From Escherichia coli (GTDB lineage: Bacteria; Pseudomonadota; Gammaproteobacteria; Enterobacterales; Enterobacteriaceae), in the NCBI RefSeq assembly GCF_044324875.1, contig NZ_CP172185.1: a stretch of 64,000 nucleotides of DNA; one strand, written 5' to 3'. A program made the translations under genes and the position numbers. The notes beneath the pieces are model-generated. The model searched no databases. It was given only the letters and a program-made list of their open reading frames with translations, and was not told where the DNA came from. Shown here piece by piece: positions 33,455 to 36,759 of the stretch (its first letter is position 1; each line of letters opens with the position of its first letter).

Positions 33455-33925
33455 TCATCGTATATAACTGAATGCGGTGATGACGTGTTTCACCCCCGCC
33501 ACGCGACTGGCGATATCAGCAGCAGCCTGTCCTTCCTTCTCTGTAACTCTCCCCATAAGAAAGACTTCACCATTCTCCGTCAGTACCTTTACATCTGACA
33601 GTTTCACCCTGCTGCTCTTCAGTAACTGTGCCCGGATTTTTGTGGTCAGCCACGCATCAGTAGCTGTTTTATCAGCCCGAAGTGGTTTTCCCGTCCTTAT
33701 TTCATTCCATACCTGCACAGTCCCCTCAACACCATCTGCAATCTGACGGGCTTTTTCACCTGCACTACGGTCTGGTGCCTGCCCTGTCAGCAGTACAGTG
33801 CCCTGGTATGCTGTGACGATGATTCGCGCATCCCCCCTGAGTTGTGAGTCCTTCGACAGCGCACGGCTGACCCTTGCTTCCAGAATTTCATCATCAATCT
33901 GCGTTCCCGCACTTCGGGGGTCCAC
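33455..33925 (-). pseudogene. BON-domain (OsmY-like) protein gene, 5' end truncated by IS21-family insertion
   Basis: Two BON-like repeats (VEGTVQVWNEI, VAGVKHVITAF); the N-terminal signal sequence is missing and the 5' end of the ORF runs into the IS terminal repeats. Confidence 0.65.
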
Positions 33926-34131
33926 TGACTGCAAAATGGCATCTGAATCGATCGCAGTTTGGCATTCGAATCGATCATGATTTGGCATCCATCTCCGATC
34001 ACAGTTTGGCATCACAATCGATCACGATTTGGCATGCTTCCGATCATTGATTGGCATCCTGCCAGTCACTCCGGGAATTAACTCTTTTCACCACAGTCTC
34101 CATTGCCGTGTTTAAACCAGTGGAGACGTCA

Positions 34132-35697
34132 ATGTCCAGAAAGAGAAAATCCAGGAGCACTATGGAAACCTGTTTTAAGATCCTTCAGCTCAAGTTCGAC
34201 AAGAAGCTGACTAACCGTTGTATCGGACTGACGTTACACATCAGCGCCTCAACCGTTTTTGAGGTTCTTGCCCGCTTCAAAGCCTCTTCTCTGTCATGGC
34301 CATTACCTGCTGATATATCCCATGACACGCTGGAGAAACTCATTTTTCCGCCCAAAGACACCTTTGCATCAGAGCTTGTAATGCCTGACATGTTGTACTT
34401 CGATACGGAAATGAGAAAACCAGGTGTGACGCGGCAACTGTTGTGGATGGAATACAAGGCACAGGCGGGTAACAAAGCGATGGGATACTCGCACTTCTGC
34501 CGTTGCTACCGGGAGTGGAAAAAAACGCGACGTCTCTCCATGCGCCAGGAGCATCGTGCCGGCGAAAAGCTTTTTATCGACTTCTGTGGTCCTACGGTTC
34601 CTGTTATTAATCCGGACACCGGTGAGATACGCCGCGTGGCAATCTTCGTGGCCGTAATGGGGGCGTCCAACTATACCTACGTTGAAGCGTGCGAAGGTCA
34701 GGACATGATGTCATGGTTAAATGCCCACAGCCGTTGCCTGACCTTCCTGGGCGGCGTACCGAAGCTGCTCATCCCCGATAACCTCAGAAGCGCAGTGAAA
34801 AAGGCCGATCGATATGAGCCTGTCATCAACGACAGTTATCAGGCACTGGCTGAGCACTATGGCACGGTTATCATCCCGGCCCGACCACGCAAACCTAAAG
34901 ATAAACCAAAAGCAGAAAACGGCGTCCTCATCGTTGAACGATGGCTTCTTGCCCGCATCCGTAATGAAACCTTCCACACGCTCAGGGCGCTGAATGCGCG
35001 CCTTAGGGAGTTACTGACAGACATGAATAACCGGCCAATGAAGGGGTACGGCAATCAAACCCGTGCAGAACGCTTCCGCATACTGGATGCGCCAGCACTC
35101 TCTCCGCTGCCTCTGGCACCTTATGAATACACGGAATACAAAGCTGTGAAGGTTGGCCCTGACTACCACGTTGAATATGCCCGTCACTGGTACTCCGTTC
35201 CACACGAACTGGTCGGTCAGCGTCTGTCACTGAAGGCGGGGCAGTCGGTGGTACAGCTCTGGCACAAGGGGCAGTGTGTGGCGCAACATCCGCGCAGCAC
35301 ACATGAATATAAACACACAACCAATCCGCTTCACATGCCAGAGCGCCACCGGCAGCACGGGACATGGACACCGGAACGCCTGATCGAGCAGGGAAAACGT
35401 ACGGGCCCGTCCACAGGCCGGGTGGTTGAATCCATGCTGAAGGCAAAACCCCATCCGGAACTGGCTTATCGTGCAGTTCTGGGGCTGCTGGCACTTCAGA
35501 AAAAATACGGCCCGGAACGGCTGGAAAAGGCCTGTTACGTTGCCCTGCACTATAACGCCCCTGACAGACGCTTTATCGACAATCTGCTGCGTCACCATCG
35601 GGAGAACCTGGAGCTTCCATTATCCCGCCAGGGCGAACAACATCCGGCATATGCTTCAGAGCATGAAAACCTGCGTGGTCCGGGCTACTACCACTGA
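34132..35697 (+). CDS. istA: IS21-family transposase IstA
   Basis: N-terminal HTH region and DDE core typical of IstA; start ambiguous (ORF begins at 34051). Confidence 0.8.
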   Translation: MSRKRKSRSTMETCFKILQLKFDKKLTNRCIGLTLHISASTVFEVLARFKASSLSWPLPADISHDTLEKLIFPPKDTFASELVMPDMLYFDTEMRKPGVTRQLLWMEYKAQAGNKAMGYSHFCRCYREWKKTRRLSMRQEHRAGEKLFIDFCGPTVPVINPDTGEIRRVAIFVAVMGASNYTYVEACEGQDMMSWLNAHSRCLTFLGGVPKLLIPDNLRSAVKKADRYEPVINDSYQALAEHYGTVIIPARPRKPKDKPKAENGVLIVERWLLARIRNETFHTLRALNARLRELLTDMNNRPMKGYGNQTRAERFRILDAPALSPLPLAPYEYTEYKAVKVGPDYHVEYARHWYSVPHELVGQRLSLKAGQSVVQLWHKGQCVAQHPRSTHEYKHTTNPLHMPERHRQHGTWTPERLIEQGKRTGPSTGRVVESMLKAKPHPELAYRAVLGLLALQKKYGPERLEKACYVALHYNAPDRRFIDNLLRHHRENLELPLSRQGEQHPAYASEHENLRGPGYYH

Positions 35698-35713
35698 CAG
35701 AAGGAACAACAGT

Positions 35714-36469
35714 ATGAGTGATAACCTGTTAAACAAACTGACCCAACTGAAACTCCCGGCGATGGCCGGGAGCCTGATACGGCAGCGGGAAACGCCTCAG
35801 ACCTACGACGAACTGTCGTTCGAGGAAAGGCTGACGCTGCTGGTTGATGACGAGCTTCTGAGCAGGGAAAACAGCCGTGTGGCACGGTTGAGAAAAAATG
35901 CCGGCCTGAAATACCAGGCAACACCGGAAGGGCTGCGCTATCCGGCCTCAAGAGGTCTGCGGGCTGAACAGATGAGAGAACTGCTGAACGGCCACTACAT
36001 AACCCACAGGAAAAACCTGCTGATAACCGGTCCGACAGGATGTGGCAAGAGCTGGATAGCCAATGCGCTGGGCGAACAGGCATGTCGACAGAAACACAGC
36101 GTCCGGTACTGTAGAACCGGGCGATTACTGGAACAACTGGCTCAGGGACGTGTTGATGGCAGCTGGCTGAAATATCTGAAACAGTTGCAAAAAATACAGG
36201 TTCTAATCCTGGACGATCTGGGGCTGGAACAGTTAAGTAACGCCCAGTGTAATGACCTTCTGGAGCTCATAGAGGATCGTTACGGACAAAGCAGCACGAT
36301 AGTGGTAAGCCAGTTCCCGGTAGATAAATGGCATGGTCTGATGGAGAACCCAACAACAGCAGATGCCATCCTGGACAGACTGGTACATAACTCACACCGA
36401 GTGGTCCTTCAGGGAGAGTCACTGAGGAAAAATCCCCCGGTAGTGGAAAGCAGCGAAAAAACGCGTTAA
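35714..36469 (+). CDS. istB: IS21-family ATP-binding helper protein IstB
   Basis: Walker A GPTGCGKS and Walker B VLILDDLG; start MSDNLLNKL just after the istA stop. Confidence 0.85.
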   Translation: MSDNLLNKLTQLKLPAMAGSLIRQRETPQTYDELSFEERLTLLVDDELLSRENSRVARLRKNAGLKYQATPEGLRYPASRGLRAEQMRELLNGHYITHRKNLLITGPTGCGKSWIANALGEQACRQKHSVRYCRTGRLLEQLAQGRVDGSWLKYLKQLQKIQVLILDDLGLEQLSNAQCNDLLELIEDRYGQSSTIVVSQFPVDKWHGLMENPTTADAILDRLVHNSHRVVLQGESLRKNPPVVESSEKTR

Positions 36470-36759
36470 AAAGCGGTAGAAAAAGTTAAGTTCCCGGTTG
36501 ATCGAATGGATGCGAATCGCTGATCGGACTTCGATGCCAATCCGTGATCGAATAGAGCGGAATACGCAGGGAACCACACAGGGTATGGACAAACATAATA
36601 ACAATAACAGGATGAAAATATTGAATAAAAAATAAAAACCGAGACATCATCATTTGCAGTAATAGCCACCTCCTTACCGAAAAGTGTGAGTTGCCGGACA
36701 TTTTTTAAACGCATGATAAGGTCTGATGATACAGTCACCCTGCAACCAGGAGGTACATC

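Follow-up and report, generated by a model that had tools for sequence, protein, structure and literature searches.

A complete ISSso4 element and an IS-associated 230-bp deletion probably truncated a dolP paralogue on an Escherichia coli genomic island

The stretch of Escherichia coli DNA analysed here (64,000 nucleotides, hereafter the window) contains a BON-domain gene that seems to begin inside a series of repeats. A preliminary description had taken positions 33455-36570 for an IS21-family element inserted into an OsmY-like gene, which raises the questions of which element this is, which gene has been damaged, and whether insertion accounts for the damage. We conclude, with a probability of about 0.93, that an intact ISSso4 together with an IS-associated deletion of 230 bp truncated an island-borne paralogue of dolP (yraP). 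The originally proposed span does cover the gene remnant plus the IS, but the IS alone occupies 33930-36568.

The element carries two genes on the same strand, istA followed by istB with 16 bp between them, in the arrangement of the IS21-family gene pair. The first, istA (34132..35697, plus strand), would encode a transposase of 521 aa from its first ATG, or of 511 aa from position 34162, the start assigned by PGAP in identical copies. IstA scores 284.6 bits against NF033546 (cut-off 160) and 72 bits against PF22483, a Mu-transposase C-terminal domain; its score against PF00665 (rve), 32.1 bits, lies marginally under the cut-off of 32.6, and the protein belongs with the DDE (rve-type) transposases. 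The second gene, istB (35714..36469, plus strand), encodes an AAA+ helper ATPase of 251 aa that scores 205.7 bits against PF01695 and 257.8 bits against NF038214 (cut-off 200). Copies with the same istB DNA sequence carry the annotation WP_001282653.1, "IS21-like element ISSso4 family helper ATPase IstB". The matches to NF033546, NF038214 and PF01695 bear out the family assignment made in the preliminary description.

The complete element spans 2639 bp (33930..36568, plus strand) and has the ends TGCAAAATGG...GAATACGCA. Many plasmid copies in E. coli and E. fergusonii are 100% identical to it over positions 1..2639, and the full-length matches stop at exactly 33930 and 36568 in hundreds of unrelated contexts, as do the matches in E. 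coli genomes. Target duplications of 5-7 bp border these exact ends in nine other, independent copies (5-7 bp in eight plasmid copies and 7 bp in a Shigella sonnei copy), within the 4-8 bp range of the IS21 family, to which the TGC...GCA ends and multi-repeat termini also conform; the window copy itself has no such duplication. Indirect evidence suggests that the element can transpose, as its identical copies occur in a variety of contexts and are each bordered by a duplication of their own. It is abundant as well, and a single E. coli genome can show as many as 23 matching places. Within the window, a search returned only the copy at 33930..36568.

ISSso4 is an ISfinder entry of the IS21 family, first named in S. 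sonnei. Membership was defined as full-length nucleotide identity above about 95%, the ISfinder isoform level, and the name itself was taken from PGAP family names and from one paper's annotation of pCT. The copy on plasmid pCT, named ISSso4 in PMC6361801, is 99.7% identical to the window element over 2639 bp, and the copy on the S. sonnei virulence plasmid pFORC11.1, whose genes PGAP labels "ISSso4 family", is 96.3% identical. On these identities, the window element is the catalogued, already known ISSso4, in an isoform about 4% divergent from the S. sonnei copy. The istA-istB organisation, the ends and the repeat layout are the same in the pCT and S. sonnei copies; the window copy differs from ISSso4 elsewhere in its missing target duplication, and otherwise in nothing of substance.

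Both ends of the element consist of repeats. The left terminal region (33930..34058, plus strand) comprises the tip TGCAAAATGGCAT and, after it, five GATCNNNNNTTGGCAT repeats at a spacing of 22-24 bp, this 16-mer starting on the plus strand at 33950, 33973, 33997, 34020 and 34042. The right terminal region (36504..36568, minus strand) reads, on the minus strand, as the tip TGCGTATTCCGCT and then the repeats GATCACGGATTGGCAT and GATCAGCGATTCGCAT, which place GATCNNNNNTTGGCAT at 36549-36534 and, with one mismatch, at 36525-36510. The window holds seven GATCNNNNNTTGGCAT matches, where 1.7 were expected and none of 100 shuffles reached seven, and there is no match in the window away from the two element ends. 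The TTTGGCAT-type repeats noticed earlier therefore do mark multi-repeat IS ends, all seven matches being terminal. IS21-family terminal inverted repeats have been described as composed of multiple repeats, with a terminal CA (PMC10122671). In an element from Pectobacterium that is 82% identical, the five left repeats and their spacing are kept and the N positions of the motif vary, and we infer that the repeats are binding sites for IstA. When the left end was aligned with the right, MAFFT and an ungapped version differed by one repeat unit, so that individual repeats are not paired between the ends here.

The layout resembles, and extends, that of the model elements IS21 and IS5376, known from IstA-IstB cryo-EM, which are described as carrying two repeats at each end (L1/L2 and R1/R2), produce target duplications of about 5 bp and have a transposase that binds the terminal repeats (PMC10122671, PMC11208146). 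ISSso4 shares with them the DDE transposase with its AAA+ helper, TG...CA ends and multi-repeat terminal inverted repeats, but has five full repeats plus the tip on the left and two plus the tip on the right. Its IstA (511-521 aa) is also longer than theirs, owing to about 120 additional residues at the C-terminus that have no family match.

GATC is conserved inside every terminal repeat of ISSso4; of the 13 GATC sites in the element, eight fall within the terminal 210 nt, and the 82%-identical Pectobacterium relative retains those of the left end that were examined. It is conceivable, though doubtful, that Dam methylation gates the binding of IstA to this unusually long repeat array; the GATC could equally be just part of the protein-recognition motif. 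Dam-coupled transposition is known for IS10 and IS50, but to our knowledge no description of it exists for the IS21 family. If such gating did occur, transposition of this IS21 lineage would be coupled to replication.

A second IS21-family element, IS100, occupies the end of the window from about 62279 onwards, with istA at 62370..63392 (340 aa, 319.8 bits against NF033546) and istB next. It shares the istA-then-istB order with ISSso4, but its termini are unrelated. Because the two IstA proteins are only 32% identical, over a 59-aa stretch of the catalytic core alone, the elements are, by this comparison, distinct lineages, as had been proposed from the greater length of the ISSso4 IstA (521 or 511 aa against 340 aa).

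As for the damaged gene, the native sequence left of the IS is the 3' remnant of a dolP (yraP) paralogue (33455..33928, minus strand) that retains residues 34-190, namely 157 codons plus the stop. The remnant is 99% identical to intact proteins of 190 aa (P0001 and P0002), keeps both BON domains (PF04972 matches in two stretches) and scores 234.1 bits against the DolP model NF008247 (cut-off 184) over profile positions 37-191. The gene had been called OsmY-like; this identity was rejected, as the OsmY model NF007858 gives 60.4 bits against a cut-off of 174. Matches to PDB entries point the same way, the intact island allele (190 aa) matching YraP (PDB 7A2D) at E = 1e-60, end-to-end with the mature protein, against E = 4e-10 for OsmY (PDB 8RJX). 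Like E. coli DolP/YraP, a dual-BON outer-membrane lipoprotein, the intact island allele has a leader with a lipobox (MQRWFLPFLSTLLLLQGC, lipobox MQRWFLPFLSTLLLLQG-C, LLQGC), and it satisfies the NCBIfam DolP equivalog model. In contrast to DolP, it is island-borne and accessory, a second copy with about 60-65% identity to the enterobacterial DolP proteins that a protein search retrieved; the window copy is 5'-truncated and presumably dead.

The remnant could nevertheless be mistaken for a whole gene, since an uninterrupted ORF of 186 aa with a GTG start occupies 33455..34015 (minus strand). This ORF is the one argument for regarding the BON gene as full-length and functional and the repeats as regulatory or intergenic DNA, a reading that is practically untenable: its first 29 codons lie in the left end of the IS, inside DNA that matches the IS end of hundreds of unrelated plasmids at 100% identity, the lipoprotein leader of the 190-191 aa homologues is missing, and the DolP match begins at profile position 37. 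The lipoprotein signal peptide of the gene, with its lipobox cysteine, is deleted in the window, where the remnant begins at residue 34. The alignment with homologues, named in advance as the result that might overturn the preliminary description, thus upheld it: the BON ORF is not full-length, and the repeats are IS termini.

The same in-frame hybrid ORF might instead be expressed by read-out transcription from the left IS end, yielding a cytoplasmic fusion protein with two BON domains and a new role. We regard this as very improbable. A crude consensus scan found no promoter-like site on the minus strand of the IS end (33930-34200), and the single promoter-like site that it did find lies downstream of the remnant. 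The N-terminus of the hybrid is hydrophilic, with a mean Kyte-Doolittle value of -0.82 compared with +1.22 for the native leader, and has no signal peptide; the truncated allele was seen in none of the other genomes examined. Furthermore, the function of the DolP family relies on lipid anchoring in the outer membrane (structure 7A2D), which such a protein would not have. Without a start codon, promoter and export signal of its own, the remnant cannot make an exported, lipid-anchored protein, and it is most plausibly a pseudogene that is not expressed. For the ORF at 33455..34015, the appropriate annotation is that of a pseudogene of the dolP paralogue, joined to IS sequence by chance.

The two junctions were then defined against intact alleles. 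At the left junction (33929..33930), ...GTCCACTGAC is followed by TGCAAAATGG..., where the intact allele runs on into ACTTTAGTACCC...; native sequence ends at 33929, and the BON ORF continues straight into the left IS end, as had been observed at the outset. At the right junction (36568..36569), ...GAATACGCA is followed by GGGAACCACA..., and the k-mers observed across the junctions are GGGGGTCCACTGACTGCAAAATGGCATC and GAGCGGAATACGCAGGGAACCACACAGG. Two empty sites from other E. coli, L001 and L002, align with the left flank to 33929 and with the right flank from 36569, and the IS takes the place of the 230 bp that lie between (L001 2381..2610). The missing 230 bp comprise codons 1-33, including the lipoprotein signal peptide, and 132 bp upstream, and they recur elsewhere in the window only as chance matches of 19 nt or less. 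The earlier claim that the gene had lost its signal peptide and promoter thus agrees with the alignment to both the intact 190-aa alleles and the empty site.

Nor does the far side of the IS hold the missing 5' portion of the gene; there, 191 of the original 323 bp of the divergent intergenic region between dolP' and a glutaredoxin-like gene are kept (36569..36759); the glutaredoxin-like gene (36760..37011, plus strand) is the right neighbour of the IS region. An ORF at 36486..36701 (minus strand, "MMMSRFLFFIQYFHPVIVIMFVHTLCGS...") was considered as the lost lipoprotein leader and rejected, as it has no Pfam hit and the DNA in question aligns, in the intact locus, with an intergenic stretch well upstream of dolP, the real leader being MQRWFLPFLSTLLLLQGC.

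These junctions bear on how the IS came to lie there. Insertion in one step, with both gene halves kept and a target duplication at the flanks, is the default for IS21-family elements, and the nine other ISSso4 copies do show the duplication. At this locus, however, the flanks ...CACTGAC and GGGAACC... contain none, 230 bp of the empty site are missing, and the DNA right of the IS aligns to the intergenic region of L001 and not to dolP coding sequence, which makes such an insertion highly improbable. The notion of an IS inserted into the BON gene consequently stands as regards the 5' truncation, but not as a simple insertion. We attribute the missing target duplication of the window copy to the 230-bp deletion.

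For an insertion combined with a deletion, we propose the following course of events. By homology, IstA, the DDE transposase, would recognise the GATCNNNNNTTGGCAT repeats in both ends, bring the ends into synapsis and cut at the terminal CA, and integration would be aided by the AAA+ ATPase IstB, a normal insertion leaving a target duplication of 5-7 bp. ISSso4 would have landed within or beside the 5' end of the dolP/yraP paralogue, and a second IS-associated event would then have deleted the adjoining 230 bp, removing codons 1-33 with the signal peptide and the lipobox LLQGC as well as 132 bp of promoter and ribosome-binding sequence. This second event could have been an adjacent deletion through intramolecular transposition, for instance from a tandem-IS junction, or a recombination between two nearby ISSso4 copies in the same orientation.

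Homologous recombination between two such copies, independently inserted about 230 bp apart, predicts what is observed, namely one hybrid IS, no matching duplication and loss of the intervening DNA, and the high copy number of ISSso4 is in its favour. Deletions by recombination between IS copies are classic, as with IS100 and the pgm locus of Yersinia pestis. This route is a serious possibility, though the less probable one: it takes three events against two, requires same-orientation hits within 230 bp, and the 19 complete genomes and 24 contigs surveyed showed neither single-insertion allele. Adjacent deletion is therefore slightly favoured, because fewer events are needed.

The truncated allele did not appear in the other genomes surveyed. 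In each of the 19 complete E. coli genomes with the dolP-paralogue locus, which was located via its protein, the locus is intact, and a search through the neighbouring YebF protein showed seven distinct places among 24 contigs, all seven intact; no IS-bearing or intermediate allele was seen among these 19 genomes and 24 contigs. In an intermediate, the right end of the IS would run on into (C)(A)CTGACACTTTAGTACCC, or TGCAAAATGG would come directly after ...AAAGAACGGGGAA(CC). No allele combining the IS, a duplication and the full gene was found, so that the course of events and the mode of deletion given above are tentative. When the whole region was compared with complete E. coli genomes, the matches listed were to the IS only and no record covered at least 80% of the region; thus none has this arrangement. 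The left flank had no match among plasmids, indicating that the island is chromosomal. The element sits in an integrase-bearing E. coli genomic island adjoining yhfS.

IS21-family transposition, gene inactivation by an IS and adjacent deletion are textbook mechanisms, and there is nothing new in kind at this locus. The significance of the analysis beyond annotation is small: it fixes the exact boundaries of the IS and describes, in the island of the source strain, an IS-associated 230-bp deletion that was seen in none of the other E. coli genomes and contigs examined. The truncated allele could therefore serve as a strain or lineage marker.

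The element at 33930..36568 (plus strand, 2639 bp) shares 99.7% identity (7 mismatches, 0 gaps) with the copy on plasmid pCT, listed as ISSso4 in a published comparison (PMC6361801), and 96.3% with the Shigella sonnei pFORC11.1 copy, which identifies it as the known ISSso4 or an isoform. Megablast of this interval against plasmids returned 506 records, 232 of them with a single match covering at least 80% of the query. Many of the best plasmid matches spanned positions 1..2639 at 100% identity in varied contexts, and PGAP names on matching copies included 'IS21 family transposase' and 'IS21-like element ISSso4 family helper ATPase IstB'. 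When the query included its flanks, matches in 1832 E. coli genomes ended no more than a few bases from 33930 and 36568. The ends TGCAAAATGG...GAATACGCA were identical in 8 independent plasmid copies, each flanked by its own 5–7 bp direct repeat; a 7-bp direct repeat was found for a S. sonnei copy. The window contains a single ISSso4 copy.

Direct reading of 32800-37200 revealed a run of TTTGGCAT-containing repeats (33930-34058), two genes on the same strand, istA (34132..35697; 521 aa counted from the first ATG) and istB (35714..36469; 251 aa), and a shorter, inverted set of TTTGGCAT-type repeats (36504-36568). The IS21-family assignment made in the preliminary description was confirmed by both products: IstA scored 284.6 bits against the transposase model NF033546 (cut-off 160), and IstB 257.8 bits against NF038214 (cut-off 200), with PF01695 (205.7 bits) identifying the latter as a helper ATPase. 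Pfam detected a Mu-transposase C-terminal domain in IstA, along with an rve core that scored 32.1 bits, slightly below the cut-off of 32.6. IstA residues from about 400 to 521 had no match in Pfam or NCBIfam; these C-terminal ~120 residues make up most of its surplus length over the IstA proteins of IS100 and IS21.

The IS100 IstA ORF in the same window (62370..63392; IS21 transposase model, 319.8 bits), which matches IS100 copies at 99.9% DNA identity, encodes 340 aa, in agreement with the length difference first described. The two IstA proteins aligned significantly only over a 59-aa catalytic-core stretch (32% identity), which upholds their placement in distinct lineages. This IS100 copy starts near 62279 and runs past the window end, its istB being cut at 64000, and its left end is abutted by C-terminal fragments of an IS110-family transposase (61021-61791) and an IS3-family transposase (61858-62313), forming a nested arrangement.

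The repeats had been proposed to mark the IS termini. A search of the 64-kb window for the 16-mer GATCNNNNNTTGGCAT, allowing one mismatch, located seven occurrences, all at the two ISSso4 ends: five plus-strand copies on the left (33950, 33973, 33997, 34020 and 34042; spacing 22–24 bp) and two minus-strand copies on the right (36549-36534 and 36525-36510). Shuffled controls gave a mean of 1.7 matches and never reached seven (0 of 100), so the terminal repeats exceed chance. Both ends also carry a degenerate tip unit starting TGC. An 82%-identical relative on Pectobacterium carotovorum plasmid Drgb3 (NZ_KT351734.1, 69704-72927), whose record has no genes annotated there and a right end broken by a run of N, retains the five left-end repeats with unchanged spacing, while the five unspecified repeat bases vary in all but one of these units; this is the pattern that protein-binding sites would show. 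Each terminal unit (33950-34045 and 36500-36549) contains a GATC, and 8 of the 13 GATC sites of ISSso4 fall within the terminal 210 nt, a density of about 38 per kb versus 3.9 per kb across all of the window. The Pectobacterium relative retains those at the left end. The GATC sites could permit Dam-dependent, methylation-sensitive control of ISSso4, or may be no more than a component of the motif that IstA recognises. A GATC in every unit and the long left-end array (five full repeats plus the tip, versus two per end in IS21-family model elements) are the only mildly unusual features.

On the minus strand, the ORF listing and direct reading gave a BON-domain ORF at 33455..34015, in which native sequence stops at 33929. 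Codons 1-29 of this 186-aa ORF derive from the IS end, and the other 157 residues share 99% identity with two intact 190-aa E. coli proteins named 'division/outer membrane stress-associated lipid-binding lipoprotein'; a full-length BON gene was thereby rejected. The intact proteins start with MQRWFLPFLSTLLLLQGCVAAALVGTAAVGTKV followed by SVDPRS..., and this S (residue 34) is where the remnant starts, confirming the 5' truncation. The proposed loss of signal peptide and promoter likewise held, as the remnant lacks a start codon, ribosome-binding site, promoter and export signal of its own. Its hybrid N-terminus is hydrophilic (mean Kyte-Doolittle -0.82 versus +1.22 in the native leader), and a consensus scan found no promoter-like site on the minus strand of the IS end. 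The remnant is best treated as a pseudogene and is probably unexpressed. It scored 234 bits against the DolP equivalog model (cut-off 184; profile positions 37 to 191) and only 60 bits against the OsmY model (cut-off 174), and among solved structures the intact allele matched E. coli YraP/DolP (7A2D) from end to end (E = 1e-60, versus 4e-10 for OsmY). Therefore, the original label 'OsmY-like' should read 'DolP/YraP paralogue'.

This paralogue belongs to an island extending from an integrase to sitA (26736-39505), with an Adr/OmpW-like outer-membrane protein, a YebF paralogue, a Grx-like gene and DoxX, which resembles an accessory module related to the envelope or to secretion. From 26736 onward, the window follows the island order of the related strain GPEC1040 (integrase, TPR protein, EcsC, outer-membrane protein, yebF, dolP, thioredoxin-domain gene, DoxX, IS66 remnant, sitA), in which the island adjoins yhfS. 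There, a sitB pseudogene is all that follows sitA (38591-39505 in the window), and the island's sit operon has thus decayed in that strain. IS66-family debris occurs at about 37997-38372 and 40167-41618, comprising a C-terminal tnpC remnant, located between the DoxX gene and sitA and sharing about 85% identity with IS66 copies on plasmids, and a minus-strand 483-aa transposase ORF directly after sitA. Downstream lies a myo-inositol catabolism cluster (45990-60246) with iolB, iolE, an iolC-type kinase/aldolase, two dehydrogenases including iolG, a ribose-type ABC transporter, iolD, methylmalonate-semialdehyde dehydrogenase and an RpiR-type regulator; GPEC1040 carries a tellurite-resistance (ter) cluster at this position, and the island is therefore mosaic. 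The glutaredoxin/thioredoxin-like gene beside the IS (36760-37011, plus strand) encodes 83 aa in the window, where an extra T at 36971 alters the C-terminus, and 97 aa in several genomes and in L001, an E. coli contig with the empty site. Both forms occur in strains whose dolP is intact (the 83-aa one in L014), and thus the length difference is unrelated to the IS.

Contigs encoding one of the intact alleles (P0001) share the window's neighbourhood (YebF, BON, small glutaredoxin-like gene, DoxX, SitA) without the IS. BLAST of L001 against the window produced two blocks of 99.6–99.8% identity, ending at 33929 and resuming at 36569, between which L001 has 230 bp absent from the window: 98 coding nt, covering codons 1-32 plus two nt of codon 33, and 132 nt of upstream sequence. 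These 230 bp were not found in the rest of the window, and there is no direct repeat common to the two junction flanks, ...CACTGAC and GGGAACC...; a one-step insertion was therefore ruled out. Instead, a 230-bp deletion accompanies the IS. An IS with flanking loss and no duplication arises by two standard routes, here either adjacent deletion through intramolecular transposition or recombination between two nearby ISSso4 copies in the same orientation. Of 5426 complete E. coli genomes, only 19 had the locus, with listed hosts or sources mostly chicken; the whole island is thus rare, and the genomes that carry it are mostly poultry isolates. The gene was intact in all 19, as in the 7 distinct places shown among 24 contigs reached via YebF, and a search with flanks found the window's IS-bearing arrangement in no complete E. 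coli genome. The two routes are indistinguishable here because no intermediate allele turned up in these 19 genomes or 7 places. Overall, the preliminary description was a correct reading of an ordinary situation, in which a catalogued IS and a small IS-associated deletion inactivated an accessory dolP paralogue.
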